Assembly (NCBI RefSeq): GCF_000172995.2
Contig: NC_014736.1
Location: 1 to 32,000, forward strand
DNA: 32,000 bases
Reading direction: 5' to 3'
Source: Halogeometricum borinquense DSM 11551
GTDB taxonomy: Archaea; Halobacteriota; Halobacteria; Halobacteriales; Haloferacaceae
The stretch's first letter is position 1. Each line of letters opens with the position of its first letter. The position numbers and the translations under genes were made by a program. The notes beneath the pieces were generated by a model. It searched no databases. It saw only the letters and a list, made by a program, of their open reading frames with translations, and was not told the DNA's origin. Positions 798 to 29,488 of this stretch are shown here, in pieces.

Positions 798-2387
798 TCA
801 GTCGTCGCTCGGTGAACTCGAATCTGATTGCCGAGTGAGAATCGTCTCGTTCTCTACGTTGATCTCACTGGAGTCCTGCACGTATTCCTTCGCGACGACA
901 TAACTCCCATAGAGGATAACGAGCAGCAGTAGCGAGAACGGTAGTGCCATCGTGACCGACAGCGACTGGATGGAGCTGAACTCCTTGAGTTCGAGCGACA
1001 TCATTCCGAAGAAGGCCAGTAATGCACCCCACCACGCGCGATTTCGGGGATTCGGATTTTCGTTACCGAGCGTAATCGCGGAGATCATGAACACCGCCGA
1101 GTCGAGTGAGGTGATGATGTAGCCTGCGATGACGAACACGAACAAGACCGCCAGTACCGCCCCAAGGGGAGTGATTTGCAGGGCCTTGGCGACAGCCGCA
1201 GGTTTGCCAGCAGCGGCCATGATGTCTGCGACTGGTTGCTGGTATCCCGGCGCAAGTACCCATCCGCCGATGAGTAGGTGTTGGATCCACGTCAGGAACG
1301 TCGGTACCACGACAAGGACGACGAACATTTCGCGGATGGTTCGTCCCTTCGAGACGCGAGCAACGAAACTCCCGACGAAGATACTCCAAGCGGCCCACCA
1401 TGCCCACCAGAATCCGGTCCAGTTGGCTGCCCAATTACCCGCGGATGTCGGCGCAGTGTAGAGCGACAGACGGAGCATCTCGCTGAGCCAGACGCCCGTC
1501 GCATCGAGACCGAGTTCGAACATGAAGATTGTCGGCCCGACCACGACAAGCAGCGCCATCGAAACACCGATCAGAAACATCGTCGCACGGGCAGCATTGC
1601 GGATCCCTTTTCTGAGGCCGAGCCAGACGTCACCGAGGAAGACAACGCCGATGAGCGCGAAGACCGCGTACGTCAGGACCGTTGCTTCGAGGTTAAACAC
1701 GCGGCCGAGAATGGCTGCCATCGTTTGCGCACTGAATCCGAGCGTCGTCGAAATGCCGCCGATAGTAGCGACAACCGCGGCCAGATTGACCATCCAATAG
1801 AGTCCGGGAATACGGTCTTCATCGACGATAGCGGTGAGCATCGAACTGATCTTGTAATCACCGACACCGTCGGTATAGACGATGATCCCAAACGCAATCG
1901 CAACGGGGAGGTACCACATTGCAAGGCCCGGGAACACCTCGTGGATGAACATAAACGCCAGCGCCATTGCCTCTACGGACGCACCTTGGACCGGATACGG
2001 CTTCGGCGGCGGATTGCTGACGATGGAGATGGGTTCTGCGACGCCCCAGATGAGAATGGACGCACCGAATCCGACGGTGAATACCATCGATAGCCACGAG
2101 AACAGGTCAAACTCCGGTTCGGCATCGGGACCGCCGATTCGGAGATGCCCATACTGCGAGAATACCATTAGCAGGACAACAATCAACAGAACGAATCCGA
2201 GGAGGATGAACCACCAACCGAAGTAATTGAGGACCCACGTTTTCGCGCCGATGAGCGTGCTACTCAGTAATGACGGGTTTAGGAGCCCGAACCCACCGAG
2301 AGCGAGCATCACACTCATCGCTACGACGAACATGATCTTCTCTGACCACGAGGCCTCTTCAAGCCCCAAAAGATACCACGTTTTCAT
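798..2387 (-). CDS. BCCT-family (betaine/carnitine/choline-type) secondary transporter
   Basis: 529-aa ORF with many hydrophobic segments. It carries the Trp-rich BCCT signature ...NWTGFWWAWWAAWSIFVGSFVARVSKGRTIREM... and an acidic C-terminal tail. Confidence 0.85.
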   Translation of the reverse strand: MKTWYLLGLEEASWSEKIMFVVAMSVMLALGGFGLLNPSLLSSTLIGAKTWVLNYFGWWFILLGFVLLIVVLLMVFSQYGHLRIGGPDAEPEFDLFSWLSMVFTVGFGASILIWGVAEPISIVSNPPPKPYPVQGASVEAMALAFMFIHEVFPGLAMWYLPVAIAFGIIVYTDGVGDYKISSMLTAIVDEDRIPGLYWMVNLAAVVATIGGISTTLGFSAQTMAAILGRVFNLEATVLTYAVFALIGVVFLGDVWLGLRKGIRNAARATMFLIGVSMALLVVVGPTIFMFELGLDATGVWLSEMLRLSLYTAPTSAGNWAANWTGFWWAWWAAWSIFVGSFVARVSKGRTIREMFVVLVVVPTFLTWIQHLLIGGWVLAPGYQQPVADIMAAAGKPAAVAKALQITPLGAVLAVLFVFVIAGYIITSLDSAVFMISAITLGNENPNPRNRAWWGALLAFFGMMSLELKEFSSIQSLSVTMALPFSLLLLVILYGSYVVAKEYVQDSSEINVENETILTRQSDSSSPSDD

Positions 2388-3121: not shown

Positions 3122-3854
3122 TCAGGGTTTCGTCTTCCGGTTTCGACCTGTTTCTTTGTTTCGCTTGGGCCGACTCAAAAGCGGTGCGACAGCTTTCAGA
3201 ATCTTCGCCTCGGAGCGACGAAGGTGTTCGCCGACCGTTGAGGTGTTCGCGGTATCCTGTTCGGCGAGGTCGGCGATGTTGCACCCGCGTGGTGAATCGT
3301 AGTATCCCTCGTCGATGGCGCGACCGAGAACCTCACGCTGGCGCGGCGAGAGATCTTGGACAGCCCTGTTTGACCTCGCTCAGCCCCGTAAGTAGCCGGT
3401 CGAGTTCTGGCGTCCGAAGCGAATCGACCTCCACGTGGCCGATTTTCTGGAGTTCCTCGTGAGTTCGGCTGACCTGTTCGTGGTCGGAGGCGATGACGCT
3501 CCAGTGTTCGCGGCCGCCGGTCACTGTCGCCGGGACGGTGGGGAAACAGCGGTTGCGAAGCAGAACGTTCAACACGGGCTCTGTGTCCGTCTCGTAGTCG
3601 CCGGCCAAACTGACGAACGCCGTCTCGCGGTCCGCATCGTAGCTGACAAGCTGGGCCACTGTCATCACCTCGTGGTCGTTGAGCCACTCGACGAACGCGT
3701 CTGCATCGGAGACGTTCGTCGCCTCGATCATGGTGATTGAAATCCCTAATAACCGGTAGGAGTAGATGATCGCCGCTGAAATGTCCGGGAATCGGTCGTT
3801 CAGGTTCTCTGTCCAGCACCCTTCGTGTCGGATTCGGAACGTATATTCTAGCAT
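3122..3854 (-). pseudogene. HTH_10 (bacterio-opsin-activator-like) transcriptional regulator, frameshifted
   Basis: The N-terminal part (MLEYTFRIRHEGCWT..., frame of ORF 3333..3881) ends at ...LSEVKQGCPRSLAAPA*. My hand translation of a second minus-strand frame from about 3379 gives ...AVQDLSPRQREVLGRAIDEGYYDSPRGCNIADLAEQDTANTSTVGEHLRRSEAKILKAVAPLLSRPKRNKETGRNRKTKP*, with the stop at 3122-3124. That is the canonical HTH_10 domain. The shift lies at about 3353-3379. Confidence 0.75.
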
Positions 3855-3946: not shown

Positions 3947-4762
3947 TCAGTTATCCTTCGCTTCTTCACGGAATTCGATGATGACCGCGCCGACGACGAG
4001 TAGGAGCGAGACGTAGAAGATGAGTGATGCCACGGCGGGCACTACTGGCGTGAATCCCTGTGTCATCCGTCCGTGTATCCAAGTGGTGATGGTGCTTTCG
4101 ACACCCGAGAGATACGAGACGATGTAGTAGTTGTTCCATGCTAAGACGAACGCGAAGATAGCACCGGAGACGACGCCGTCTTTGATGAGCGGGAGTACGA
4201 TCTTGGTGTACAGCGTAATCGAGTCTGCACCCAAGTCGCGTGCGGCCTCCTCAACGTTCGGATCGACCCCCAGCGCCGTGATGGAGACGACGAACATCAC
4301 GATGGGAGAGATCCAGACGAGTTCGCCAACGATAGCCGGCAGGACGCCGTAACCCAGGCCGACGACACTAGCCCACATCGACATTCCAAGCCCGAGCAGG
4401 ATGAGCGGGAAGAAGATGGGCAACAGCGCCAGCAGTTTGAACTTGTCCTGGTAGGGGAACTCGTGTCGCGTGTAGGCGATGGCACCGCCGGTGCCGATGA
4501 TGGTGCTGATGATCGTGACCGGCACGGCGATGCGAACCGTGTTCATGAACGCCGAGCGGATGCTCCCCGATCCGAGCGCCGCTTCGTACCAGTGCAGCGT
4601 GAACTCGTAGTCCACGATGGAGAAGAACCGGCCGTCGTAGAACGACGCGATAACTAGACTCAGCAGTGGCAGGACGAAAAACAGCGCCACCAGAGCCACG
4701 TAGGCGTACCACGAGCCAGCTTTCAACTTGGCAACGAGCGGGCTAGTCCGCGCGGTGCTCAT
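3947..4762 (-). CDS. ABC transporter permease (PotC-like, polyamine-type)
   Basis: 271-aa polytopic membrane ORF with an EAA-loop-like ...EEAARDLGADSITLYTKIVLPL.... It shows a 4-nt ATGA overlap with the upstream permease gene. Confidence 0.85.
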   Translation of the reverse strand: MSTARTSPLVAKLKAGSWYAYVALVALFFVLPLLSLVIASFYDGRFFSIVDYEFTLHWYEAALGSGSIRSAFMNTVRIAVPVTIISTIIGTGGAIAYTRHEFPYQDKFKLLALLPIFFPLILLGLGMSMWASVVGLGYGVLPAIVGELVWISPIVMFVVSITALGVDPNVEEAARDLGADSITLYTKIVLPLIKDGVVSGAIFAFVLAWNNYYIVSYLSGVESTITTWIHGRMTQGFTPVVPAVASLIFYVSLLLVVGAVIIEFREEAKDN

Positions 4763-5697
4763 CGCTTCCCACCTCGTGAGGCGATTTCTTTGAGGTCGAT
4801 GGTCCGGAGGATGATGACGCCGGCCACAACCGTGATGAGCAACAGTCCAACCGCCTGTGCTGATCCGAGCGGCCAGTTTTGGCTGTATCCGAACGAGTAG
4901 TTGATGTTGCTTGCCATGGTGTACACGGAACCGCCGCCGAGGATCTGTGCCTCGACATCCGCACCCAACGTGAGGATGAACACGAACAGCGAGCCGATGA
5001 TGATACCCGGCATACTGAGCGGCAGCAGTATCTTCCGGAACATCGTCAGCTTGTTCGCGCCGAGATCCGCGGCCGCCTCGAACGTCGTATCCTCGATGCT
5101 CAGAAGCGACAGGTAGATCGGGAACAGCATGAACGGCATGTAGACGTAGGTCGTCCCGAGGATGATGGTCCAGCGCTGGTACATCATCGACGGATAGTTG
5201 GAGATCCCGAACAGGCCGACAATGCTGTCCAGCACGCCGTTTTGGACGAGGAACAGCGCCCAGCCGAACACGCGGATATTGACGCTGGTGAAAAGCGGGA
5301 TGATGAGCATCAGCAGGAATACTAACTTGTAACGCTTGATCTTCCGCGCGAGCGCGTACGCCGCCGGGTAGGAGAACACGAGTGTCGTCACGGTCGTAAT
5401 CGCACTAATGACGACGGTGTTACCCATGACCTGCCCGTAGATACCCGATCCGCTGAGGATTCCACTGATGATCTCGTCGTAGTTGGCGACCGTCCACAGC
5501 GACGGATCGAGTGAGATGGAGTTGGCTGGCTGGATCGAGAACAGCACGATGGCAACCATCGGGCCGACGAACATGAACAGCAGCAGCACTGTCAGCGGCA
5601 GCATGAACAGGTACGGTGGCCGTAACAGCGCCATCACGGGGTTATCATGCTCGGAGGCGTCGTAGAACGCGCCACGGAGAGATTCGATAGTTGACAT
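4759..5697 (-). CDS. ABC transporter permease (PotB-like)
   Basis: Polytopic ORF with ...FEAAADLGANKLTMFRKILLPL.... I trimmed the start to MSTIESLRG..., whose ATG shares one base with the TAA stop of the ATPase gene (TAATG). This suggests translational coupling. Confidence 0.8.
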   Translation of the reverse strand: MSTIESLRGAFYDASEHDNPVMALLRPPYLFMLPLTVLLLFMFVGPMVAIVLFSIQPANSISLDPSLWTVANYDEIISGILSGSGIYGQVMGNTVVISAITTVTTLVFSYPAAYALARKIKRYKLVFLLMLIIPLFTSVNIRVFGWALFLVQNGVLDSIVGLFGISNYPSMMYQRWTIILGTTYVYMPFMLFPIYLSLLSIEDTTFEAAADLGANKLTMFRKILLPLSMPGIIIGSLFVFILTLGADVEAQILGGGSVYTMASNINYSFGYSQNWPLGSAQAVGLLLITVVAGVIILRTIDLKEIASRGGKR

Positions 5698-6758
5698 TAT
5701 TCTGGCACCAGAATGGACTTTCTGGCGTCCCACTGGAGGTACGCGGTGTCACCGACTGCCAGATCGACGCCTTCGAACTTCTCGAAGTCCACCTCGGCGA
5801 CGTAGTCCTGATCGGAGTGGTCCGCCGACCCTTCGATAAGGACGGTGTTCCCGCGCACGAGGATGTTGTCGACGTGGACTTCGGCCCCGAAGTCCTTCCG
5901 GAGATCGGGTTCGACGATGCAGTCATCGTAGCGCACGACGAGGTACTCCGGCGGGATGTCGAGGTGGGTCTCGACCGGTCCCGAGTTCTCCAGCGCCGCG
6001 CTTGCGATGTCGGCCGTCCCGCCGGAGACGGTCTCCGCAGTCACGGGGAAGACGTTGGCGTCGCCCATGAACTCCGCGATGAACTTGTTGTTCGGCTCGC
6101 GGTAGATGTCCTCGGGCGGTCCCGTCTGGACGGTGTCGCCATCGTCCAGCACGAACAGCTTGTCGCTCATCACCAGCGCCGCCTCCAGTGAGTGGGTGAC
6201 GTAGATGAACGTCATGTCCAGTTCGACGTTGAGGTCGGCGAGTTCGCGCTGGAGTCGCTTCTGCAGGACGTAGTCCAGCGACGCGAGCGGTTCGTCCAAC
6301 AGCAGGATGTCCGGGTCGTACGCCAGCGACCGCGCCAGCGCGACGCGCTGTTTCTGTCCGCCGGAGAGTTCCGTCGCCTGCTTGTCTGCGTGGACCTCGG
6401 GGTCGAGTCGGACCTGTTCGAGCAACTCCTCGACCTGCCCGTTGACCTCCCGACCAGTGTTCTTGATCGGGAACTCGATGTTCTCTCTGACGGTCATGTG
6501 GGGGAACAGCGCCCACGACTGGAACACCAGGCTGGTCGGCCGCTTCTGTGGCGACGTGTAGGTGATGTCTTGGCCGTCTAGGTTGATCTCACCCGCAGTC
6601 GGTTCGAGGTGTCCGGCGAGCATCCGCAGCAACGTCGTCTTTCCGCAGCCAGACGGACCGACGATTGTAGCGAACTCGCCGGTTTCGATCTCCAGGTCCA
6701 CGTCGTTGACTGCGACGAGCGATCCATACTCCTTTCGTAGATTCGTAGCCGTTAACAT
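5697..6758 (-). CDS. ABC transporter ATP-binding protein (PotA-like, with a C-terminal regulatory/TOBE-like extension)
   Basis: Walker A is GPSGCGKTT, the signature motif is LSGGQKQRVALARSL and Walker B is LLLDEPLASLD. Length 353 aa. Confidence 0.9.
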   Translation of the reverse strand: MLTATNLRKEYGSLVAVNDVDLEIETGEFATIVGPSGCGKTTLLRMLAGHLEPTAGEINLDGQDITYTSPQKRPTSLVFQSWALFPHMTVRENIEFPIKNTGREVNGQVEELLEQVRLDPEVHADKQATELSGGQKQRVALARSLAYDPDILLLDEPLASLDYVLQKRLQRELADLNVELDMTFIYVTHSLEAALVMSDKLFVLDDGDTVQTGPPEDIYREPNNKFIAEFMGDANVFPVTAETVSGGTADIASAALENSGPVETHLDIPPEYLVVRYDDCIVEPDLRKDFGAEVHVDNILVRGNTVLIEGSADHSDQDYVAEVDFEKFEGVDLAVGDTAYLQWDARKSILVPE

Positions 6759-6802
6759 TGGTATCAGTGCGTTTCTGAGATCCCAACTGCGAGAAGAACA
6801 GC

Positions 6803-8032
6803 TCAGATGCGTGCCTTCGCTTCTCGCCAGATGGGTTCGAACTTGTTCAGATCCGGGATGCCGGTGTAGAACACCGAGCGTTCGAGGATGTCCGGGATGT
6901 CGTCAACTCGGAGCACCTCGCGCTGTCTGTCGTTGTAGTTCTCCCAAGCCGTCTTGTGCGGGACGACGTTCGTCCCACCGGATGTCGGCCAAGAGAGTTT
7001 CAGTGCGTTCTCGCCTTGCTGCATGTACGCGAGGTAGCTGTCCGAGACCGTCGGCTGTTCTCCCTTGACGAATGCGGTCGTCTCGACCCAGATGACGCCG
7101 CCTTCTTCGGGCACGTGGGCCTCGAACTGGAGGTTGCCACCGCGTCTGAGGGTGCCGTTAATCCAGTTGCCCGAGATGAACCCGATGTCGATCTCACCAG
7201 ATTTCAGCGCCTGATTCATCGACGCGAAATCCGGAAGCAGGGTCTTCGCGTTGTCGAAGAGGTCGAACGTCGCCTGTCGGACCTGCTCGACCTCCTCGTC
7301 GGTGTGTTCTTTGTACGGGTCGATACCTTCACGCAGCATGATTATCTGGATTCCCCAGAACATCAGGTCGTAGACGCCGACGTCGTACTCTTCGGACCAC
7401 GCCGCGTCGTAGGTCTTGTAGTCGTCCGCCGAGACGGTGTCTTTGTTCACGACGAACGACGCCCAGCCGAAGCGCTGGGGAGCACCGTACATCTTCCCGT
7501 CGAGGTCGAACGTGTAGTCGTCCTCGTTGACGAAAGCGTACTTGTAGCCGTTCTGTTTCTGGAAGACGTCGATGTACTGGTCGAAGGTGTACGGTTTCCA
7601 GTCTTCGTAGCTGATGGGTCGGATGAGGCCCGCTTCGGCGAGGCGCGGAATCCACGCCATATCGAAGGTGGCTTGGTGGAACTGCTTCCACTCGCCGGAC
7701 TTGAGACGGTTGAACGCCTTCGGGTTCGACGTGAACAGATCCAGTTGCGTGTTGCAGTCGAACTGTTCACGGAACGGGTCCTGCACGTTCGAGGCGTCGT
7801 ATCCCGTCCACGTCAGGTGGTTGATCGTCTCGCCCTCCTTGTCGTTCTCGTTCGGCGAGTACAGGGCGTCGTACTCCTTTGCCGGCACCATCGCCAGCGG
7901 CTGTGTACGCCAACTCCCGCCGTCACTACCGCTGTCGCCGCCGCCACCGGAACATCCTGCCACGCTGGCGACACCAGTCGTCGCAGCCGCTTCCATCAAC
8001 CGTCGTCGAGTGAGGCTTGGTTTGTCAGTCAT
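6803..8032 (-). CDS. ABC transporter substrate-binding lipoprotein (PotD/PotF-like, family-1 solute-binding protein)
   Basis: Tat motif plus lipobox: MTDKPSLTRRRLMEAAATTGVASVAGCSGG. The PotD-like core is ...LTWTGYDASNVQDPFREQF...FTSNPKAFNRLKSGE.... It is the first gene of the four-gene ABC unit. Confidence 0.8.
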   Translation of the reverse strand: MTDKPSLTRRRLMEAAATTGVASVAGCSGGGGDSGSDGGSWRTQPLAMVPAKEYDALYSPNENDKEGETINHLTWTGYDASNVQDPFREQFDCNTQLDLFTSNPKAFNRLKSGEWKQFHQATFDMAWIPRLAEAGLIRPISYEDWKPYTFDQYIDVFQKQNGYKYAFVNEDDYTFDLDGKMYGAPQRFGWASFVVNKDTVSADDYKTYDAAWSEEYDVGVYDLMFWGIQIIMLREGIDPYKEHTDEEVEQVRQATFDLFDNAKTLLPDFASMNQALKSGEIDIGFISGNWINGTLRRGGNLQFEAHVPEEGGVIWVETTAFVKGEQPTVSDSYLAYMQQGENALKLSWPTSGGTNVVPHKTAWENYNDRQREVLRVDDIPDILERSVFYTGIPDLNKFEPIWREAKARI

Positions 8033-8361
8033 TGCTCACCGTGCATTCCTGTTTCCGGATGCGATGCGGATGATATCCCTCGTATCGGCTGTTTTCTGAC
8101 TCATCACGGATTTTCATGACCTAGTGAGAGGCATTACCATTCTGCCGGCTACATGTGGTGATTTATAACACCCCCCAAGATTGATATCCTCTTTCAAACT
8201 CTCGGCATCCCCTTTAGAGGGCGTTGATGGAACGCTGGTGACGGTCGGCACGGGGAATTCTCTCCATCGCTTCTGTTTGCCAATCGGGACACCGTGCGAA
8301 GGACAGTGTCTGAGAAGGACCCCCGAGACGGAAAAAGCGATACTGAGCGAGTCGGAACCGT

Positions 8362-9555
8362 TCAGAGGACGTTGCGGTACTCCAGTTCGCCGTCGAAAGC
8401 GCGTCCGAGGATCGTCTCGATATCCTCTTGGCGCGTTTGTCGTGGATTGCCGGTGAGACTCCCATCGTTGAGCGCGTTCGCTGCGAGTTCCGGAATGGCG
8501 TCGCGCTCGGCGTCGGTGTCTGCCAACGTCTCTGGTATTCGGACGCTGTCGCCGAGTTCGCGCGCTGCACGGACTGCTTTGTAGGCTTCACGCCGGACGG
8601 GAGCGTTGTGGTCGATGTCCTCGCCGAGGCGCTCGGCGACGGCGACAAACTTCTCGGGTACCTGCGGGAGATTGTACTCCATCACGTAGGGAAGGACGAT
8701 GGCGTTGATGAGTCCGTGAGGGACGCCGAACTTCCCACCGACCTGATGAGAGATGGCGTGGACGGCACCCAGCCCGGCCCCGTTGAAGGCCATCCCGGCC
8801 TGTGAGGAGGCTCTGGCCATCTTCCCGAGCGCTTCGTCGTCGCCACCGCGGTACTCGACCGCGCGCGGAAGGTACTTGCCAACCTTCTCGATGGAGTCCA
8901 GTGCGAGCGAGGAAGTCTGACTCTGAGCTTTGATCGAGACAAACGCCTCGATGGCGTGAGTCAGCACGTCCATTCCGGTCGCGGCCTTGACCGGTGCGGG
9001 CGCGCTGGCGGTGAGTTGTGGATCGATCAGCGCGAGATCGGCCAGTAGTTCCACGTCACCGATCTCCTCTTTGATGTCAGTCTCGCTGTCGCGGACGATA
9101 CACCAGTGACCGACCTCGCTCCCGCTGCCGGACGTGGTTGGCATGTAGATGGTCGGCGGCGTGTCGTATTCGACGTTGCTGACGCCCTCGTAGTTGAGGA
9201 TGTGACCGCCGTTGGTTGCGAGGATGGAGGCGGCCTTCGCGGTGTCCATCGACGAGCCGCCGCCGATGCCGATGAGCATGTCTGCGTCTGCCTTGTCGTA
9301 CATCTCGGCGGCCTCGTGAACGACGGTGTCGGTCGGATCGGGAACGACACCGTCGAAGACGGCGTAGTCTTTCCCGGCGTCTTCGATGGCGTCGAGAACG
9401 GGGTCGAGGACACCCGCAGCGCGGACGCCTTCGTCGGTTACGATGAGTGCGCGCTCGGCACCGAACGATTCGAGGTACGTACCCGTCTCGGCTGCTGTGC
9501 CGTGCCCGAACAGGATGCGGTTCGGGACGTTCCACATGTGGCTGTTTTGAGTCAT
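8362..9555 (-). CDS. Iron-containing (group III) alcohol dehydrogenase
   Basis: GGGSSMDTAKA nucleotide-binding motif and His-rich metal motif ...HAISHQVGGKFGVPHG.... I trimmed the start to MTQNSHMWNVPNRILFG (ATG at 9555). Confidence 0.85.
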   Translation of the reverse strand: MTQNSHMWNVPNRILFGHGTAAETGTYLESFGAERALIVTDEGVRAAGVLDPVLDAIEDAGKDYAVFDGVVPDPTDTVVHEAAEMYDKADADMLIGIGGGSSMDTAKAASILATNGGHILNYEGVSNVEYDTPPTIYMPTTSGSGSEVGHWCIVRDSETDIKEEIGDVELLADLALIDPQLTASAPAPVKAATGMDVLTHAIEAFVSIKAQSQTSSLALDSIEKVGKYLPRAVEYRGGDDEALGKMARASSQAGMAFNGAGLGAVHAISHQVGGKFGVPHGLINAIVLPYVMEYNLPQVPEKFVAVAERLGEDIDHNAPVRREAYKAVRAARELGDSVRIPETLADTDAERDAIPELAANALNDGSLTGNPRQTRQEDIETILGRAFDGELEYRNVL

Positions 9556-9681
9556 GGTATCGTTGCTCCCGGTCGTGACAGTGGACCGGCAGTATCTGTC
9601 TAGTAGACATCGCTTCCGGGCATACCGATTCTGCCACACACCTGCGAGCGTTTAAGTACGCTGTGAAAATGAGGATCGAAG

Positions 9682-11163
9682 TCAACCGTCCTCGTCCAGT
9701 GGGTAGAGCGGACGAGAGACGTGTTCGTAGTCGAATTGGGTGAGGTCAGGATGACACAGCCCCGGTGCTGCAACCTCACGGATAGCGCCAGCCATCGGCT
9801 CGAATGCGGCGCGGTAGTGGACCGTACTCTTGAGAACGAGAACGCGCTGGCGTTCGGGTGTGATGCCCATCCTTCGGAAGGCTTCGGGGTCGTAGGGTTG
9901 CTGGCGGTGCGAGCCAACGATGACATCGATGCCGTCGATCTCTAGGACTGCGGTGCGACCGAGGTTCACTCGGAGACCACGAGACATCGGTCCATAATTC
10001 CGGTACGAGCCGTCGGAAATGAGTCGAACCCTCCCCTCAACTGCGAGCGGGTCACCGTTGTCCTCGATGTGGCCGCCGAGATCGACGGCGACAGTGTTTC
10101 CAACGCCGGCCTCGACCGCAGCGGCAACGGCGTCAGGGTCAACGATGAGCGCGAGCGCGGCGTCTTCGATTCCTGCGTCGAGCAGTGATTCGAGGATGAA
10201 CGTCCCGTCCTCGGCGCTGCCGCCGCCGGGGTTGTCCGCGAGGTCGGCGAGCAGAAGTGGGCCGCCCTCGGTGTCGGCGTCCCAGTTGGCAGCCGCTTCG
10301 ACAGCATCACCGACGCTGGTGTAGTCGTGGTCGAACTCGTGGCGGCGCTCGTAGGCCGATTCGGCCAGCGCCTTGCAGGTCGCTCGCGTCTCTTCTGCGA
10401 CGTGCGTGTCGCTCACGCCGACGACCGAGAAACCGGCCTCTTCGACGTCGGCGTAGGCGAATCCACCGAAGACGGAGACGTCGGGTCGGAACTTCGCCTC
10501 GCTGGCGGCTGCCTGCTGGAGCAGCGATTCCATCGGCTCGATATCGGTCTGTAGCGGCGGGAGCGGCGGCAGGAGAGGGGCACGCTCGACGACAACCTGC
10601 GGGTCGAGGTCGCCCGAGAGCGTCGCGGCCATTGCCCGGGCTGCTGTTTCGCCCGTGTCGCCGATATCGACGTGTGGATAGGTATCGTAGCCGAACAGCC
10701 CGTCGGCGTGTTCGACCATCCGCTCGGAGATGTTCGCATGCAAGTCGAGACTGGCCATCACGGGGATGTCGCCCGCGGCCTCGCGGACGCGTTCGAGGAT
10801 GTAGCCATCACCGTCGGGGTGGTCCTCGCTGACCATCGCGCCGTGCAGCGCTAGCAGGACGGCGTCCGGTTCGGATTTCTCGATACCCGTGAGGACCTCA
10901 TCTAACAGGGAGGAGAGCGCATCTGCCGTGACGATGCCGCCCGGCGTCGCGTCGGCGGCGACGGTCGGGACAACGTTCCAGTTCTTTTCGTCGGCGACGC
11001 GGAGGAACCCGCCGATAGCGGTGTTGGAGCCGCGGAACTCCGGCGGAATCGTGTCACCGTAGTGTAGCGACGCGTCAGCGAACTGGTCGATTCCGGTCGG
11101 GAGCGACGAGAACGTGTTCGTCTCGTGTTCGATCTGCCCGAGAACGACGGTGGGGTCGCTCAT
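9682..11163 (-). CDS. MlrC-like / M81-family metallopeptidase (amidohydrolase)
   Basis: The N-terminal motif ...VVLGQIEHETNTFSS... is DUF1485/MlrC_N-like. The C-terminal motif ...VIVGSHRQQPYDPEAFRRMGITPERQRVLVLKSTVHYRAAFEP... is MlrC_C-like. The ATG overlaps the ALDH stop (ATGA). Confidence 0.75.
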   Translation of the reverse strand: MSDPTVVLGQIEHETNTFSSLPTGIDQFADASLHYGDTIPPEFRGSNTAIGGFLRVADEKNWNVVPTVAADATPGGIVTADALSSLLDEVLTGIEKSEPDAVLLALHGAMVSEDHPDGDGYILERVREAAGDIPVMASLDLHANISERMVEHADGLFGYDTYPHVDIGDTGETAARAMAATLSGDLDPQVVVERAPLLPPLPPLQTDIEPMESLLQQAAASEAKFRPDVSVFGGFAYADVEEAGFSVVGVSDTHVAEETRATCKALAESAYERRHEFDHDYTSVGDAVEAAANWDADTEGGPLLLADLADNPGGGSAEDGTFILESLLDAGIEDAALALIVDPDAVAAAVEAGVGNTVAVDLGGHIEDNGDPLAVEGRVRLISDGSYRNYGPMSRGLRVNLGRTAVLEIDGIDVIVGSHRQQPYDPEAFRRMGITPERQRVLVLKSTVHYRAAFEPMAGAIREVAAPGLCHPDLTQFDYEHVSRPLYPLDEDG

Positions 11164-12605
11164 CGGTAGCCTGCACCCATGTCACCGTGTTCGACTACCA
11201 CGCTATTGACCGTGGTGAACGCTTCCACGCCTTCGAGGCCGCCCTCGCGTCCGATTCCGGACCGCTTGTTGCCGCCCCACGGACTCTGGGGCATCGAGAC
11301 GGGGAAGGTGTTGACCGCAACCAGGCCGTGATCGAGTCGGTCGGCGTACCGGGTTGCGTCGAGGCTGCCGGTCCAGAGGCTGGCCGCCAGCGCGAAGTTC
11401 GAATCGTTGGCCAGTTCGATGGCCTCCTCGACGGAAGAAACTGTGATGACAGAGAGGACTGGACCGAAGATTTCCTCCTGTGCGATGCGCATGTCGTTGG
11501 TTACGTCGTCGAAGACAGTCGGTTCGAGGAAGTTTCCATCCGCGAGTTCGGGGTCGTCGGGACGCTTGCCACCGGTGAGAAGCGTCGCGCCCTCTTTCTT
11601 TCCCACCTCGATGTAGTTCAGCATGTCCTCTAGGGCATCCTCGGATATGACCGCACCCATGTCTGTTTCTGGGTCCGTTCCGGGACCGAGCGTGATTGCC
11701 TCAGCCTGTGCGACGATTTCATCGACGACCTCCTCTTTGATGTCCTCGTGGACGATGAGCCGAGATTGGGCGACGCAGTTCTGCCCGGTGTTCGAGAAGA
11801 TACCGGTGGCGACGCCGACGGCGGCGTTCTTCGGATCCGCATCCGGAAGGACGATTGCCGGCGCTTTCCCGCCGAGTTCGACGTCAACCGGGATGATATG
11901 CTTCGCGGCGGATTCCAGAACGTGCTGGCCGACCATCGTCGATCCCGTGAAGCTGATGGCGTCAACGTTGGCGTTGTCGGACAGCTCCCCGCCGACCTCG
12001 CTCCCCGGGCCTGAGAGGAGGTTCACGACGCCGTCGGGGAACTCCTCGACCAAGAACTCGCCGTACCACATCGTCGTGAGCGGGGCCTGACTCGGCGCTT
12101 TAGCCACGACAGTGTTGCCCGTTGCTAGTGCGGCGGCGATGGACCGCGAGCCTAAGAGGAGTGGGTAGTTCCACGGAACGATGTGGGCGGTGACTCCGTA
12201 GGGGACACGTTTTGTGTAGTTGAACCGGTTCGACGGGGTTGGGACCGTATCGCCGCGCACTTTGTCCGTGACGCCCGCGTAGAAGCGGAACTGCGCGACG
12301 GTTTCGGCCACTTCTCCTTCAGCAGTGGCGAGACACTTGCCGGTCTCTCGGCTCAGTAGCTCTGCGATTTCGTCGGCTTCGTCTTCGATCCGATCCGCGA
12401 CGGCGGCGAGCGGTGCCGACCGCTCACTGGGATCACTGTATCGCCACTCGCGTGCCGCCCGCTGAGCGGCCTCGATTGCGTCGGCCGTCTGCGCTGCCGT
12501 CCCGCTTGCGACCGTCCCAAGTACGTCGCCCGTCGCCGGGGCGTCTACCGACAAGCGCTCTTCGGTATCCACCGCTGCACCGTCTATCAGCAGTCCGTAG
12601 TCCAT
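11160..12605 (-). CDS. NAD(P)+-dependent aldehyde dehydrogenase
   Basis: ALDH motifs: catalytic Glu in ELGGKAP, catalytic Cys in GQNCVAQSR, and the C-terminal ...GGNKRSGIGREGG.... I trimmed the start to MDYGLLIDG (ATG at 12605). Confidence 0.9.
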   Translation of the reverse strand: MDYGLLIDGAAVDTEERLSVDAPATGDVLGTVASGTAAQTADAIEAAQRAAREWRYSDPSERSAPLAAVADRIEDEADEIAELLSRETGKCLATAEGEVAETVAQFRFYAGVTDKVRGDTVPTPSNRFNYTKRVPYGVTAHIVPWNYPLLLGSRSIAAALATGNTVVAKAPSQAPLTTMWYGEFLVEEFPDGVVNLLSGPGSEVGGELSDNANVDAISFTGSTMVGQHVLESAAKHIIPVDVELGGKAPAIVLPDADPKNAAVGVATGIFSNTGQNCVAQSRLIVHEDIKEEVVDEIVAQAEAITLGPGTDPETDMGAVISEDALEDMLNYIEVGKKEGATLLTGGKRPDDPELADGNFLEPTVFDDVTNDMRIAQEEIFGPVLSVITVSSVEEAIELANDSNFALAASLWTGSLDATRYADRLDHGLVAVNTFPVSMPQSPWGGNKRSGIGREGGLEGVEAFTTVNSVVVEHGDMGAGYR

Positions 12606-12732
12606 GCCAAACAACGACACGCCGTCGGCCCTAAGCCTTCTCTGGGTGATTTGGGAGTGTTTAAGTATTGACGACTGTCTCGGTCCCACAGTACAGTCAG
12701 TATCTGACTCCTCCACTCACCGTACTGGCTCA

Positions 12733-12797
12733 ATCTGACGTGACCGGGCCTGACCCGCTCTGACCCGATCTGATTTGACCCTGCCAGACTGACCGAC
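12733..12797. promoter_or_regulatory. Phased TGACC repeat array in the divergent ALDH / GS-like promoter region
   Basis: Four tandem 10-bp units start at 12741, 12751, 12761 and 12771: TGACCGGGCC, TGACCCGCTC, TGACCCGATC, TGATTTGACC. Further TGAC(C/G) copies occur at 12736, 12776 and 12790. An AT-rich stretch (12810-12836) follows. Confidence 0.4.
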
Positions 12798-12890
12798 TCG
12801 GCCACTCATAATGACAGATAATATCTCACATAAAAGCCGTCGCAAATCTACGGGCCAAGGGTTACTACCCGTGGAATGACTGTATGAGCT

Positions 12891-14222
12891 ATGATGGCTT
12901 CTACCAAGGAGTTCGACACCATCCGGCTGGTCTGGACCGACCTGAACGGCGTCGCTCGGGGCATCTCGATCCCGGCGTCAGAACTGGATAACGCGGCCGA
13001 AGAAGGCGTCGGGTTCGCAAACGGCGTCGCCGAACTCACGCTCGAACCTGGGCTGCTCGATGATCCAAAGTACGGCCCTCAGCACGGGGATATGATGGCT
13101 GTGGCCGACCTCGATTCGGTGACGCCGCTATCGTGGCACGAGAACATGGCCGCCGTCTTCACTGACCTGACCACGGTGGACGGCAAGCGGTTCGATCTCT
13201 GTCCCAGAAGCGCACTCAAGTCCGTCGTCGAAGATGTCCGCGACGCGGGCTTTGAACCCTTCGTCGGCGTCGAAACGGAGTTCTCGCTGCTCGCACCGGA
13301 CGACGACAACGGCTGGGTCCCGTTCAACTACCGCTGTTCGTACGATATGGACGCGCTCGACCAGAGCGCTGACCTGATGCACGCTTGGTCAGATGCGATG
13401 AACGCCGGCGGCTACAACGTTCTCGGTATCCATCAGGAGTCTCAGCCCGGCCAGTACGAGGTTAACATCGAGTACGACGACGCGGTTACGACCGCCGACG
13501 GGGTCATGTTCTTCCGGCATATGGTGAAGGCGCTCTCGCGGAACGAGGGGCTGAAGGCGACGATGATGCCCCGTCCCCACTCGGGCGAGGACGCTAACGG
13601 ACTACACTACCATCTCAGTCTCTGGGACGGTGACGAGAACTGCTTTGCAGGTGGCGATGACGCCGAAGACCTCCAGTTCCCGGCGGGCAAACACCCTCAC
13701 GGGGCTGGAATCTCAGACACGGCACGGTACTTCATGGGCGGCTTGCTCGAACACATGAAGGCCCTGACCGCGGTGTGCGCGCCGACAGTCAACTCCTACA
13801 AGCGACTCATTCCGGGTATCTGGGCACCGGTCAACATTGCTTGGGGACCGGACAACCGTTCGACCGTGTTGCGACTCCCGCCGGAACTCGGGCCGGCGAC
13901 CCGCATCGAACATCGAGTTACCGACAGTGCTGCCAACCCTTACCTCTCGATGGCCGCGACGCTCGCTGCCGGTCTCGACGGTATCGAAAACGAGATCGAT
14001 CCCGGAGAAGGGACGTTGTCGAATGCCTACGAAGAGGACTACGAGAACCTCCCGCGAACGCTACCGGGTGCGCTGGCACACCTTGAGAACGATGCCGTGT
14101 TGCGAGACGCGCTCGGCGAGGACCTCGTCTCCGAGTTCGTGAAGCTCAAGCGCGACGAGTTCGACCGCTACCAGAACCACGTCACCGACTGGGAGCGCGA
14201 GGAGTACCGCGACGAGTTCTGA
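12891..14222 (+). CDS. Glutamine-synthetase-family ATP-dependent ligase (candidate gamma-glutamyl-amine synthetase, PuuA/GlnA3/GlnA4-like)
   Basis: 443-aa ORF with GS catalytic-domain motifs ...GVETEFSLL..., ...NGLHYHLSLW..., ...NSYKRL..., ...WGPDNRSTVLR.... It is divergent from the ALDH-peptidase-ADH-ABC cluster. The subfamily call is an inference from context. Confidence 0.8.
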   Translation: MMASTKEFDTIRLVWTDLNGVARGISIPASELDNAAEEGVGFANGVAELTLEPGLLDDPKYGPQHGDMMAVADLDSVTPLSWHENMAAVFTDLTTVDGKRFDLCPRSALKSVVEDVRDAGFEPFVGVETEFSLLAPDDDNGWVPFNYRCSYDMDALDQSADLMHAWSDAMNAGGYNVLGIHQESQPGQYEVNIEYDDAVTTADGVMFFRHMVKALSRNEGLKATMMPRPHSGEDANGLHYHLSLWDGDENCFAGGDDAEDLQFPAGKHPHGAGISDTARYFMGGLLEHMKALTAVCAPTVNSYKRLIPGIWAPVNIAWGPDNRSTVLRLPPELGPATRIEHRVTDSAANPYLSMAATLAAGLDGIENEIDPGEGTLSNAYEEDYENLPRTLPGALAHLENDAVLRDALGEDLVSEFVKLKRDEFDRYQNHVTDWEREEYRDEF

Positions 14223-15423: not shown

Positions 15424-17526
15424 TCACTCGCGTGTGAGAACGACGTTGTCGAGTCGGCTCTGATCGAGTCCAGTGCGATACTCACCTCGGATACGGAACT
15501 GTGTGAGGTCCGAAAGCACCGCACGGAACTCATCTTCGGTGGCGAACGGGTCTTGTGAGTCGATATTGATCCAGTCGTCGTCCGCCGAAAGCGACACTTC
15601 GAACGACGTCCAGTCGGTTTCGGGCTTGGAGTTGTCGCCACGGAATTCGTAGACGAGTGTCATCCCCGAACCGCTGAGAACGATGTCTCCTCCTACCGGA
15701 AGGGCAGCATCGAACTGCTGGTCCGTCTCTTCTTGGCGCAGATCGAAAGCGAGCGTGCCCCCATAGAATGCGTCTCGGGGACCGAGGAATTTGAACGGGG
15801 CTTGATAGTACCAGGTAACCCCGCCCTTGTCCTCGCTATCACCAATATGTCCACTGGGATTTCCGTCCTCGGAGTAGTATTCGGGAGTGTTGGAGCTCCC
15901 ATTTTGAGCGATTAGCCAGCCCTCCGCGTCGTCGTCGAAAGTACTCTCGATGCGTTCGGGAACGTCGCCGTCGGAGGCCGGTGTCGCCTTGATCGTCTTT
16001 GTGAACTGTTCGTCGCCGCTTTCGTCGTAGATGCCAATCGTAAGGGTGTCTCCCGACTCGTCAACGCTGACCGTCCCGAAGTTGAAGTATCCGCCTTTCG
16101 AAAAGAATGCTGTCGGATTGAGTGGCGAATAGAGTTCTTCCGGCGTACTCGGGTACGCACCAAGTGGGCCGGCGACAGCCTCGTAGAATTCAAACTCGCC
16201 GTCGTCATTGGGATCGAACCCACTGACCTGCGAGTAATGCACGTCGCCAGCGACGCTGACGACGTTGGCAATCTCCTCGGTATTGATATACGAGATCAGT
16301 TCCACCAGTTCTGCTTCGTATCCGGTCCGCTCTGTCGGTGTTGCCCACGTATCGGAGGGCTGGCCAAGGGGTGCTGGGGAGGCGATCACCTTCCATGTCG
16401 CGTCGGACGCCGACAGAGAGCTCTTCAACCATTCCAGTTGCTCACGACCGAGTAACGTTTTCTGTTTCAGTTCGAGATTGGGATCGCGGTACTGCCGCGT
16501 GTCCAGAACGAACAGTTCGAGATGGGCTCCCCAGCGGAACGAGCGGTACAATCGACTGGCTTCCGTCCCGGTCACCTGCTGGCTTTGGTCGATCGGCCAG
16601 TACTCTATGAAGGCCTGCCGACCGGACGGCATCAGCGGTTCGATAGAGCCCGCAAAGTTGTTCTGGACCTCGTGATCGTCCCAAATGCTGACGACCGAGG
16701 TTGCTGCAAGCAGGGAGCGAAGATACGTTTGCTCGGCGACTGACTCAGGCGGGACACGCATCTCCTTGTACTTTCCCCGGTAGATGTCGAGCGCATCCGC
16801 AAGTGATGTGTCCGAGGTAACCCGACCAGCCGGCGTCTTGGCGTCCGCATAGATGGTGTCACCGTGATAGAGGAAGAAGTCTGGTTGTCGCTCGGCAATC
16901 GTTTGGAGGCCCTCGAAGGGTGGGTCTACGGGAATGGGTCCATACCCCCACGTATCACCGCTCCAAGCGAACGTGACTGCCCCGTCGTCGGTTGCTTTGG
17001 GTGGGGTGACGAAGGTTCCCTCGACTGTCGAATCCGGCACAGAGGCCGTGTCGCCGTCGGACGTTACTGCTTCATTACTCTCGTCGCTCGTTCCGGCTGT
17101 CGCCCAGACGCGGTAATAGTACCGAGTCGCCGGCTGAAGTTCTGTTAGTCGAACGTGTCCGGTGTAATCTGTCGAGTCGGCAACCGTTGTGGTTTGTCGT
17201 TGGGTCGAGTCGAACTCGTCGTCAGTACTGTACTGCACTTGTAGTGTCGCCGTGTCGGCTGTTCGTGCCCACACGACAGCAGTCGTCGCGGTAACGTCAC
17301 CCGACGCGACGCCGTGGGTGAGCGGGATGGTTTGCGTGTTGTTCGGCGTCTCTCCATTCGACTCATCGTCGTCTGACTGTTCGCTACTTGCTTCATTACC
17401 ATCCGATTCAGCACTCACCGTGCCGGATAAGCCGGCGGCTGCAACTGTTGATGAGCCAACGGCTTGGAGAAAGGTACGGCGATTATGGTCCGATCCGTCT
17501 CTGTCGATGCTAGGGTCCTCAGCCAT
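15424..17526 (-). CDS. phoD: Tat-secreted PhoD-family alkaline phosphatase/phosphodiesterase with a C-terminal laminin-B-like domain
   Basis: Tat motif DHNRRTFLQAVGSSTVAAAG. The PhoD N-domain is ...THGVASGDVTATTAVVWART... and the metallophosphatase core is ...FLYHGDTIYAD...WDDHEVQNNF.... The C-terminal part, ...WYYQAPFKFLGPRDAFYGGTLAFDL...FRIRGEYRTGLDQSRLDNVVL, matches the laminin-B (domain IV) pattern. Confidence 0.85.
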   Translation of the reverse strand: MAEDPSIDRDGSDHNRRTFLQAVGSSTVAAAGLSGTVSAESDGNEASSEQSDDDESNGETPNNTQTIPLTHGVASGDVTATTAVVWARTADTATLQVQYSTDDEFDSTQRQTTTVADSTDYTGHVRLTELQPATRYYYRVWATAGTSDESNEAVTSDGDTASVPDSTVEGTFVTPPKATDDGAVTFAWSGDTWGYGPIPVDPPFEGLQTIAERQPDFFLYHGDTIYADAKTPAGRVTSDTSLADALDIYRGKYKEMRVPPESVAEQTYLRSLLAATSVVSIWDDHEVQNNFAGSIEPLMPSGRQAFIEYWPIDQSQQVTGTEASRLYRSFRWGAHLELFVLDTRQYRDPNLELKQKTLLGREQLEWLKSSLSASDATWKVIASPAPLGQPSDTWATPTERTGYEAELVELISYINTEEIANVVSVAGDVHYSQVSGFDPNDDGEFEFYEAVAGPLGAYPSTPEELYSPLNPTAFFSKGGYFNFGTVSVDESGDTLTIGIYDESGDEQFTKTIKATPASDGDVPERIESTFDDDAEGWLIAQNGSSNTPEYYSEDGNPSGHIGDSEDKGGVTWYYQAPFKFLGPRDAFYGGTLAFDLRQEETDQQFDAALPVGGDIVLSGSGMTLVYEFRGDNSKPETDWTSFEVSLSADDDWINIDSQDPFATEDEFRAVLSDLTQFRIRGEYRTGLDQSRLDNVVLTRE

Positions 17527-23105: not shown

Positions 23106-23570
23106 CGACGGAGCCGTCTTACGAGACTGTGAAACGTCCGCGCACGCTGTCGGTTGGATGTTCGCTTCCGAGGGCCGTTCCGACTCCCGATCGCAATTAG
23201 TTCGGTCCCGGAGATATAGACCATCGTTCACATAACACATTGTGCGGGGAAAAGTACTCGCACAGTTCGTAGTGGTCGTGTTTCGAGTAGCTGACTCTGC
23301 GTAAAGCCGAGCGTTTCGGGCCAGCGCCTTTATCTGGTAAGTACCTTCTGCGAGAACTCTCCGGGTCACCTATCTATTGGGTTGATGTCACTCGACAGCT
23401 AGCGTCGGCAACTCACTTCCCTTTGGCAACTTTCGGAGGTTCGTAGTTGCGAGTACATACTATTGACCGTAGAAAATCAAATCTGAGTGAAACTCGTCTC
23501 CAACTGTGGAGCGATAGCGTGGCGAATAGCGACCCCGGAGATTTACGTATGCACATAAGAATCAGTCGCT

Positions 23571-24740: not shown

Positions 24741-24804
24741 GATCTCCCACTTCCCCTCCGACAGTGGTCGAATAGGGTAGCAACAAACCGACACCTAACA
24801 AGCT

Positions 24805-28418: not shown

Positions 28419-28499
28419 ACACTGCTAGTGTTATCTGTTTAGCATAAATAACTTTTCAATAGATGGTCTTGTTGGCTAGTCTGAAGACATCGGTTTTAC

Positions 28500-29456: not shown

Positions 29457-29480
29457 ATATCGACGGCAGGTTGCAAGTAG

Positions 29481-29488
29481 ATTATATA
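29481..29488 (-). promoter_or_regulatory. TATA box for the DUF5694 gene (leaderless spacing), flanked by a 7-bp inverted repeat
   Basis: The minus strand reads ccggTATATAATctacttgcaacctgccgtcgatatATG. There are 24 nt between the TATA element and the ATG at 29456. GGTTGCA (29469-29475) and TGCAACC (29510-29516) bracket it. Confidence 0.5.

Follow-up and report, generated by a model that had tools for sequence, protein, structure and literature searches.

The first 32,000 nucleotides of contig NC_014736.1 of Halogeometricum borinquense DSM 11551 (assembly GCF_000172995.2), hereafter the window, carry a gene cluster that probably encodes an ATP-dependent, gamma-glutamylated route from ethanolamine to glycine. 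This route would dispense with ethanolamine ammonia-lyase, an enzyme that requires coenzyme B12. A glutamine synthetase (GS)-like ligase gene on the plus strand is divergent from minus-strand genes for an aldehyde dehydrogenase (ALDH), an M81 (MlrC-like) peptidase, an Fe-alcohol dehydrogenase (Fe-ADH) and a four-gene ATP-binding cassette (ABC) importer. Window proteins were scored against Pfam and NCBIfam models, and their relatives were mapped by tblastn combined with neighbourhood reading; all enzyme functions and steps proposed below are predictions from sequence and gene context. An earlier sequence-only reading of this DNA had proposed that an amino alcohol is catabolised by way of gamma-glutamylation, the M81 protein serving as the de-glutamylating step, and the computational tests (ligase residues, synteny and ethanolamine links) agree with it. 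The eight open reading frames (ORFs) it described were borne out in coordinates and family by an ORF check and by Pfam and NCBIfam, and a ninth component that it had overlooked, an HTH_10 regulator gene, lies directly downstream of the importer genes. The components are:

3122..3854, minus strand: HTH_10-family transcription regulator, frameshifted (tblastn, sister-strain comparison, Pfam HTH_10 in the intact gene)
3947..4762, minus strand: ABC permease, PotC-like (Pfam BPD_transp_1; best NCBIfam match PotC, 106 bits, below cutoff)
4759..5697 (ORF to 5733), minus strand: ABC permease, PotB-like (Pfam BPD_transp_1; best NCBIfam match PotB, 150 bits, below cutoff)
5697..6758, minus strand: ABC importer ATPase (Pfam ABC_tran, 133 bits; PhnT2 and PotA top matches, both below cutoff)
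6803..8032, minus strand: substrate-binding lipoprotein, predicted ligand ethanolamine (Tat motif RRRL, lipobox AGC)
8362..9555 (ORF to 9639), minus strand: group III Fe-ADH, predicted to convert gamma-glutamylethanolamide to gamma-glutamyl-aminoacetaldehyde (Pfam Fe-ADH and ADH_Fe_C)
9682..11163, minus strand: M81 (MlrC-like) zinc peptidase, predicted to split gamma-glutamylglycine into glutamate and glycine (DUF1485, 308 bits; MlrC_C, 208 bits)
11160..12605 (ORF to 12716), minus strand: NAD(P)-dependent ALDH, predicted to convert gamma-glutamyl-aminoacetaldehyde to gamma-glutamylglycine (Pfam Aldedh, 529 bits)
12606..12890, no strand: divergent intergenic region between the ALDH operon and the ligase gene, presumed to hold promoters and operator (position only)
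12891..14222, plus strand: GS-like ATP-dependent ligase, predicted gamma-glutamylethanolamide synthetase (Gln-synt_C, 344 bits)

While the eight ORFs stand where they had been placed, three of their products are probably shorter than the full frames. Gene calls in a sister H. borinquense strain (locus L026) give an ALDH of 481 residues starting at ~12605, an Fe-ADH of 397 residues starting at ~9555 and a PotB-like permease of 312 residues starting at ~5697. The previously noticed ATGA overlap of the ALDH stop with the start of the M81 gene (product ADQ69129.1) is real, at 11160-11163, and the PotB-like and PotC-like permease genes also share an ATGA overlap.

The ligase belongs to the GS superfamily (Gln-synt_C, 343.7 bits against a cutoff of 24) but does not reach the models for GlnA (TIGR00653; 322 against 429), PuuA-type ligases (NF045547; 343.9 against 650) or type III GS/GmaS (TIGR03105; 365.7 against 469.6), the last being its best match among the GS models. 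It was aligned to E. coli GlnA, which we take to share the Salmonella residue numbering, to E. coli PuuA and to the archaeal GS 8ool, ungapped with HMMER and gapped with MAFFT. The metal, ATP and glutamate residues E129, E131, E212, E220, H269, H271, S273, R321, R339, R344, E357 and R359 are all kept. In contrast, Trp takes the place of the catalytic flap residue E327 in the window ligase and in all its haloarchaeal relatives, Ser that of the ammonium-site residue Y179 (alignment to the archaeal GS) and Lys or Leu that of S53. D50 is probably lost as well, reading Pro in the ungapped HMMER alignment anchored on a conserved DMM motif and Asp only in the gapped MAFFT alignment. The flap site is likewise Trp in GmaS (9qur) and Tyr in PuuA in our own alignments, and it corresponds to W296 in PauA7 and F331 in GlnA4 (PMC6529630). 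Gamma-glutamyl organic-amine ligases with such changes are reported to be unable to use ammonium (PMC11335346). Like PuuA, PauA, GlnA3/4, GmaS, IpuC and NpaA1, the window protein combines a GS fold with a replaced ammonium site and a replaced Glu flap, and it is predicted to be an amine ligase rather than a glutamine synthetase; its failure on the GlnA model and its GmaS/PauA7-like substitutions answer favourably a check that the sequence-only reading had called for. Bit scores against individual proteins were 270 for 8ool, 249 for GmaS, 138 for PDB entry 5dm3, which we take to be Csal_0679, and 129 for PauA7 (4hpp), a pattern that suggests recruitment of this ligase independently of the bacterial pathway ligases. 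Orthology with Haloferax mediterranei GlnA-2 or GlnA-3 was considered and rejected, with no Haloferax protein among the 120 best homologues, down to 37% identity. Scanning metagenomes with the aligned ligase subfamily was of no use as a census, as 79 of 80 loci were unrelated GS genes of 33-40% identity recovered through motifs generic to GS.

The M81 protein has the architecture of its family (DUF1485, 308 bits; MlrC_C, 208 bits; more than 4,500 homologues at E <= 1e-20) and, with 186.9 bits on the microcystinase model NF041767 (cutoff 999), is not MlrC proper. Comparison with the MlrC active-site residues (list from PMC9982164) revealed that the zinc ligands E39, D167, H169 and H191 correspond to E14, D140, H142 and H164, and that equivalents of the essential H133 and D332 are kept, both sets being invariant in 17 orthologues. 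The MlrC general base E70 is Ser46 in the window protein, and the Adda-pocket residues W59, F67 and F96 are Tyr35, Phe43 and Asp71. The lack of conservation of E70 and of part of this hydrophobic pocket would fit a different, small substrate. The Fe-ADH is a group III enzyme (Pfam 164 and 179 bits; motifs GGGSS, DVLTHA, HAISH and PHG) that keeps the GGGS motif and the D/H/H/H metal ligands relative to DhaT (3bfj) and lies below the substrate-specific equivalog models (ErcA, 353 against 550; GbsB, 321 against 550; EutG, 203 against 556). The ALDH is a member of its superfamily (Aldedh, 528.6 bits; ELGGK with E243 and GQNC with C277), also below the substrate-specific models (betaine-aldehyde dehydrogenase (BADH), 442 against 668.6; PuuC, 311 against 850). 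Judged from these kept residues, the Fe-ADH, the ALDH and the M81 protein look catalytically competent.

Synteny anchored on the M81 protein recovered 15 further loci at 66-90% identity, in which L003/L010 and L004/L012 are duplicate records, leaving 13 distinct genomes or metagenome-assembled genomes (MAGs). They derive from Haloplanus (five), Halobellus (five), Halorarius, Haladaptatus, a MAG labelled Haloarcula sp., Haloarculaceae archaeon H-GB1-1 and a second Halogeometricum strain. Scanning genomes with the aligned M81 orthologues, for which exact peptide patterns were required, gave 12 loci, enough for synteny and no full census. The core of GS-like ligase divergent from ALDH-M81-FeADH is syntenic in the 13 further haloarchaeal genomes and MAGs, spanning at least six genera, and is kept in every M81-anchored haloarchaeal locus with enough flanking sequence; the only exception, L013, is a contig that ends before the ligase position. 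Conservation of this neighbourhood had been set beforehand as a test of the sequence-only reading, and the tblastn map shows the ligase, ALDH, M81 and Fe-ADH genes conserved across genera. As the core recurs at 66-90% identity, the arrangement is far beyond chance. The Fe-ADH gene is immediately downstream of the M81 gene in all loci mapped, and the ALDH stop and M81 start overlap or abut in 13 of 14 further distinct loci. The importer is present in most loci (PotC-like permease orthologues of 68-96% identity) and is replaced by a permease in Haladaptatus salinisoli, and the order in Halogeometricum is rearranged, with the importer downstream of Fe-ADH. The core is kept despite these rearrangements, and its linkage is therefore maintained. 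The M81 protein is the only hydrolase of the conserved core, and no gene for a formylglutamate amidohydrolase (FGase), a C26 hydrolase or a gamma-glutamyltransferase (GGT) was found in any M81-type locus. Bacterial M81 homologues (45-48% identity) have unrelated neighbours, as do plasmid homologues of the Fe-ADH (36-37% identity), among which there is no bacterial reference cluster. A gene for a beta-keto acid cleavage enzyme (BKACE) abuts a bacterial M81 homologue (L005 9168-11476), and another lies near the Haladaptatus cluster (L003 14265-14996); the M81-BKACE association may be recurrent.

The substrate-binding protein has no Pfam match and is weakly PotD-like (4eqb, E = 0.004). Its twin-arginine translocation (Tat) motif RRRL and its lipobox AGC are typical of haloarchaeal lipoprotein binding proteins. 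The importer had been described as polyamine-type; the transporter type holds, whereas polyamine specificity finds no support, with all scores on the Pot equivalogs below cutoff (PotA, 285 against 482; PotB, 150 against 348; PotC, 106 against 326) and only a weak PotD likeness. Uptake of ethanolamine rather than of a polyamine appears more likely, and the sub-cutoff likenesses to Pot proteins and to choline and betaine-aldehyde dehydrogenases are generic. Neighbouring genes in other genomes bear on the substrate. In Halorarius litoreus, a gcvT-gcvH-gcvP1-gcvP2-SHMT-lipoamide dehydrogenase (Lpd) run, where SHMT is serine hydroxymethyltransferase, begins 1 nt past the Fe-ADH stop (L004), three Haloplanus species (L001, L011, L017) have gcvP1-P2-SHMT-Lpd after Fe-ADH, and Halobellus rufus has a gcvH in that position. 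A threonine/serine ammonia-lyase gene lies upstream of the cluster in Halorarius and Haloplanus. The substitute for the importer in Haladaptatus is a permease of the APC type; on the ethanolamine-permease model TIGR00908 it reaches 372.9 bits (cutoff 381.75), with the next family at 148. Together with the EutBCA genes described below, the gcv/SHMT genes and this permease form three independent genomic links that converge on, and point to, conversion of ethanolamine to glycine. The expectation, drawn earlier from the Fe-ADH, of a hydroxylated amine such as ethanolamine gains support from the same links. The larger block in Halorarius and Haloplanus (L004 1-1786 and 12878-19929; L001, L011, L017) comprises a 2-oxoacid dehydrogenase E2 gene and the ammonia-lyase gene upstream, and gcv, SHMT and Lpd genes downstream. 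This suggests a super-cluster leading from ethanolamine via glycine and serine to pyruvate.

In the proposed pathway, ethanolamine would be imported by the Tat-exported lipoprotein binding protein and its ABC partners. The GS-like ligase would consume ATP and glutamate to form gamma-glutamylethanolamide, in which the amine is masked. Fe-ADH would then oxidise the alcohol to gamma-glutamyl-aminoacetaldehyde and ALDH would convert this to gamma-glutamylglycine, whose gamma-amide the M81 zinc peptidase, translationally coupled to ALDH, would split to regenerate glutamate and release glycine. Glycine would enter the glycine-cleavage system and SHMT, followed by serine dehydratase, all encoded by genes that Halorarius and Haloplanus have fused to the cluster. 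Logically, the best case for a conjugated route is that the conserved, ALDH-coupled hydrolase has no substrate unless the ligase first makes an amide.

The ligase subfamily occurs in three genomic contexts. Ligases of the window type form a tight clade (68-90% mutual identity), all of whose members with a neighbourhood that was read sit with ALDH-M81-FeADH; a looser set follows at 52-63% identity, beyond which identity drops sharply to <=39%. The nearest outgroup of the tight clade, a ligase of 63% identity on a metagenomic contig (L112 9167-14023), defines a second context, with the order SDR (short-chain dehydrogenase/reductase), ligase and a class-I glutamine amidotransferase (GATase)/Peptidase_C26 gene that starts 1 nt past the ligase stop, flanked by a copper amine oxidase gene, an acetamidase-like gene and an ABC system. 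A ligase paired in this way with a gamma-glutamyl hydrolase is the classical arrangement, and it supports both synthesis of gamma-glutamyl amides by the subfamily and placement of M81 in the hydrolase slot of the window-type clusters. In the third context, represented by members of the looser set from Haloarcula brevis (L019), two assemblies of Natrinema versiforme (L020, L027) and Halobellus sp. Atlit-31R (L028), the ligase (56-60% identity) is tail-to-tail with an orthologous HTH_10 regulator (67-69% identity) in four of four loci. Each of these loci has the same ABC importer, with a binding protein 85% (Haloarcula brevis) and 76% (Natrinema versiforme) identical to that of the window in the two loci compared, and each has EutB-EutC-EutA, the ethanolamine ammonia-lyase and its reactivase (EutB, 648 against an NCBIfam cutoff of 554).

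Several observations weigh against the linear ethanolamine-to-glycine route. The EutBCA-type loci have no ADH, ALDH or M81 genes within 9-10 kb of the ligase, and their species contribute no M81 orthologue to the 79 orthologues of >=58% identity; either the ligase has some role independent of the oxidative steps or the downstream genes are located elsewhere. This ligase without nearby product-processing enzymes is the main reason why we rate the linear pathway as probable and no higher; in such loci it may generate a signal that the regulator reads, buffer free ethanolamine or serve some other purpose. The predicted M81 role is drawn from position, translational coupling and the absence of another hydrolase. 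MlrC's proposed general base is not conserved in the window protein, and MlrC, to our knowledge the sole characterised M81 enzyme, cleaves an alpha-peptide bond (Adda-Glu) in linearised microcystin. The H. borinquense window has no gcv genes, and ethanolamine is computationally indistinguishable from close analogues such as alaninol or 3-aminopropanol. Finally, the frameshifted regulator may leave the cluster misregulated in DSM 11551.

The EutBCA-type loci lend themselves to a different arrangement, which we regard as rather unlikely, in which the ligase, the HTH_10 regulator and the importer would constitute a shared ethanolamine front end serving either a B12-dependent EutBCA back end or a B12-independent one, ALDH-M81-FeADH, that leads to glycine. 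The ligase would be a sensor enzyme and, in the oxidative version, the M81 protein a dedicated gamma-glutamylglycine hydrolase, with gamma-glutamylethanolamide acting as the regulator's signal or as a buffered, non-toxic ethanolamine pool, since loci without any enzyme to process this compound still retain the ligase. If true, this arrangement would provide the first physiological role of the widespread M81 family outside microcystin degradation.

The gamma-glutamylated substrate could be another small primary amino alcohol, such as 3-aminopropanol (yielding beta-alanine), L-alaninol (yielding alanine) or N-methylethanolamine, with ethanolamine at most a side substrate. All proteins of the cluster fall short of the substrate-specific equivalog cutoffs, the binding protein lacks a close characterised relative in Pfam or by structure comparison, and GS-like ligases of the Pseudomonas Ipu pathway can act on alaninol-type compounds. 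Nevertheless, the gcv/SHMT fusions in three genera, the ethanolamine-permease homologue and the EutBCA-linked binding protein indicate a C2 compound and glycine, rendering this possibility improbable.

Little probability is also assigned to the M81 protein being a co-located general di- or oligopeptidase, with gamma-glutamylglycine split by a GGT or C26-type enzyme encoded elsewhere. Other M81 genes do occur in a dipeptide ABC operon in Sulfitobacter, with aminotransferase and BCCT (betaine/carnitine/choline transporter) genes in Natrialba magadii, and beside BKACE or aldo-keto reductase genes in bacteria, and both the alpha-peptide specificity of MlrC and the loss of its general base accord with such a role. 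Against it, the ALDH/M81 overlap or abutment persists through several rearrangements, the loci hold no FGase, C26 or GGT gene, and the sister ligase is paired with a C26 hydrolase in the slot equivalent to that of M81.

Alternatively, gamma-glutamylation might not take place, with Fe-ADH and ALDH oxidising free ethanolamine to glycine while the GS-like protein captures ammonia from glycine cleavage or EutBC. The GS-like gene does accompany both ammonia-releasing modules, gcv and EutBCA, and among solved structures the ligase scores highest on true glutamine synthetases of archaea (8ool, 270 bits). This is very unlikely in view of the replaced E327, Y179 and S53 with all else conserved, the signature of ammonium-refusing amine ligases, and of a score below the GlnA cutoff. 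Moreover, free aminoacetaldehyde is unstable, the M81 hydrolase would be left without a substrate and the sister ligase is coupled to a C26 gamma-glutamyl hydrolase.

A choline/glycine betaine route (a GbsB-like Fe-ADH, ALDH as BADH and BCCT uptake) or a Puu-like putrescine route with a Pot-type importer, for which GbsB (321 bits, with ErcA higher at 353) and BADH (442 bits) are among the top sub-cutoff matches, the transporter subunits score best on Pot models, a BCCT gene lies beside the cluster in both H. borinquense strains and Haloferax mediterranei GlnA-2 is a glutamate-putrescine ligase (PMC8394153), can scarcely be credited, as those scores are far under their cutoffs (550 and 668.6), the BCCT gene is not kept in other genera, the loci lack both an amine oxidase or aminotransferase gene that could supply an aldehyde from a polyamine and genes for GABA or betaine demethylation, a choline route leaves the ligase and M81 unexplained, and the EutBCA and ethanolamine-permease links favour ethanolamine.

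The HTH_10 regulator, which presumably controls the cluster, is interrupted in the window: its N-terminal 166 residues are out of frame with the C-terminal HTH_10 part (70% and 62% identity when the Halorarius regulator is the tblastn query). The second H. borinquense strain has an intact gene of 243 codons with a Pfam HTH_10 match, from which the window differs by 15 mismatches over 733 aligned bases and a sole indel, an extra G at window position 3366. Either the type strain has truly had this gene inactivated by mutation, leaving a pseudogene, or the frameshift is a sequencing error. An orthologous regulator is found in 13 of 14 further distinct loci, absence coinciding with contigs that end early, and the tblastn map places it next to the ligase gene in other loci. 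A shared operator sought upstream of the ligase, ALDH, binding-protein and EutB genes revealed no motif common across genera. The palindrome ACTTA-N8-TAAGT is present in the ligase/ALDH intergenic region, ~55-62 nt upstream of the ligase start, in three Haloplanus loci (L001, L011, L017) and was not found outside Haloplanus, where it may be an operator.

The cluster has a G+C content of 0.59-0.67 against 0.49-0.55 in its flanks (composition of window 1-32000) and resides on a plasmid-sized replicon of 210,350 bp in H. borinquense and on a 487-kb plasmid in Haladaptatus salinisoli (L003/L010). The G+C contrast and the plasmid location hint that it is mobile between haloarchaea. Megablast of the cluster against PLSDB plasmids, among which this replicon is absent, gave no real match, and Rfam and tRNA scans of the window gave no matches. 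A BCCT gene (798-2387, minus strand) adjoins the regulator gene and is kept in the second H. borinquense strain, and the tblastn map shows that it is not conserved beside the cluster in other genera; its presence may mean that choline and ethanolamine headgroups are salvaged together. About 1.2 kb downstream of the ligase gene lies a gene for a secreted-type PhoD phosphatase/phosphodiesterase with a Laminin_B domain (15424-17526, minus strand), and a few kb beyond it one for a PHO4 phosphate transporter (21900-23369, minus strand). These neighbours resemble the link between phosphatase and ethanolamine catabolism in phospholipid headgroup use described in Phaeobacter (PMC10132767). Other genes appear unrelated to the cluster. 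They occupy 18201-19871, 23571-26721 and 26895-32000 and encode a beta-helix/pectate-lyase-like protein, a PQQ-like beta-propeller, two pentapeptide-repeat proteins, a second ALDH (38% identical to the cluster ALDH), a DUF5694 protein and, at the window end, an IucA/IucC siderophore synthetase whose ORF runs past it.

If the linear route is correct, neither a complete catabolic pathway through gamma-glutamylation nor a conversion of ethanolamine to glycine would have been described in Archaea before. The route would also give the M81 family a concrete, testable physiological function, and would exemplify non-orthologous displacement, with M81, FGase and C26/GATase enzymes all filling one pathway slot. 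It would suggest a way for hypersaline heterotrophs to recycle the phosphatidylethanolamine headgroup of bacteria and algae for nitrogen, C1 units and carbon without B12 or acetaldehyde. The EutBCA-type and M81-type loci, with one uptake, regulator and ligase module, would also constitute a natural system for studying the swapping of catabolic modules. Literature searches for M81 or MlrC with gamma-glutamyl or GS terms returned no earlier description, and nor did searches for ethanolamine catabolism in haloarchaea. The sequence-only reading knew of no description of such a route, or of a part for MlrC homologues in it, in Halobacteria; this stands for the ethanolamine route and the role of M81, but the first step of a putrescine route, and in Archaea only that step, has been reported for Haloferax mediterranei (PMC8394153).

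The four-step chemistry has been established or proposed in bacteria (PMC6529630, PMC10132767, PMC9397018). A gamma-glutamyl ethanolamine pathway is attributed to Chromohalobacter salexigens (Csal_0678 region) and Agrobacterium tumefaciens (Vetting et al. 2015, as cited in PMC10132767), Phaeobacter MED193_10026-10056 is assigned to the same pathway by proteomics (PMC10132767), and in Streptomyces coelicolor SCO1610-1615 GlnA4 is demonstrated and the downstream steps are predicted (PMC6529630). The haloarchaeal cluster shares with these systems, with the chemistries in the same order, a ligase, an alcohol dehydrogenase, an aldehyde dehydrogenase and a hydrolase predicted to release glycine and glutamate, clustered with a known or predicted ethanolamine transporter and a regulator. 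The parts differ: the bacterial hydrolase is of the formylglutamate-amidohydrolase family or the glutamine-amidotransferase type, whereas that of the window is an M81 zinc peptidase; the alcohol dehydrogenase of Streptomyces carries an SDR annotation, whereas that of the window is a group III Fe-ADH; the transporter of Phaeobacter and C. salexigens is of the TRAP type (EtoX), whereas the haloarchaeal one is a Pot-like ABC system or an APC permease; and the haloarchaeal regulator is an archaeal HTH_10 protein. In addition, the haloarchaeal cluster is fused to gcv and SHMT genes in some genomes.

The E. coli Puu pathway is similar in having a GS-like ligase gene divergent from catabolic genes, an ALDH acting on a gamma-glutamylated aldehyde and a final de-glutamylation, and differs in its PuuB-type oxidase and C26 PuuD, both absent from the window cluster, and in its diamine substrate, that of the window being a predicted amino alcohol. 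Haloferax mediterranei GlnA-2 (HFX_1688), a glutamate-putrescine ligase, provided the first evidence of gamma-glutamylation in Archaea (PMC8394153). Like the window ligase it is a haloarchaeal GS paralogue without E327 and D50, with a small residue for Y179 and an adjoining ABC transporter, but it belongs to another paralogue family (~52% identical to the true GlnA-1), is not accompanied by ADH, ALDH or M81 genes and has putrescine as its reported substrate. The microcystinase MlrC (PDB 7YLQ; PMC9982164) shares with the window M81 protein the DUF1485 and MlrC_C architecture, the E/D/H/H zinc ligands and the H133 and D332 equivalents; the match is only 175 bits, and the window context is cytoplasmic amine catabolism, in contrast with toxin degradation for MlrC. 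The Eut pathway (EutBC with EutA) has the same predicted substrate, and in other haloarchaea EutBCA comes with an orthologous module of importer, regulator and ligase; no Eut genes are present in the window. Eut catabolism is B12-dependent and yields acetaldehyde and ammonia, whereas the window route is predicted to lead to glycine without B12. The chemistry is thus known from bacteria, and what is new here is M81 as the predicted non-orthologous hydrolase together with an apparently independently recruited ligase.

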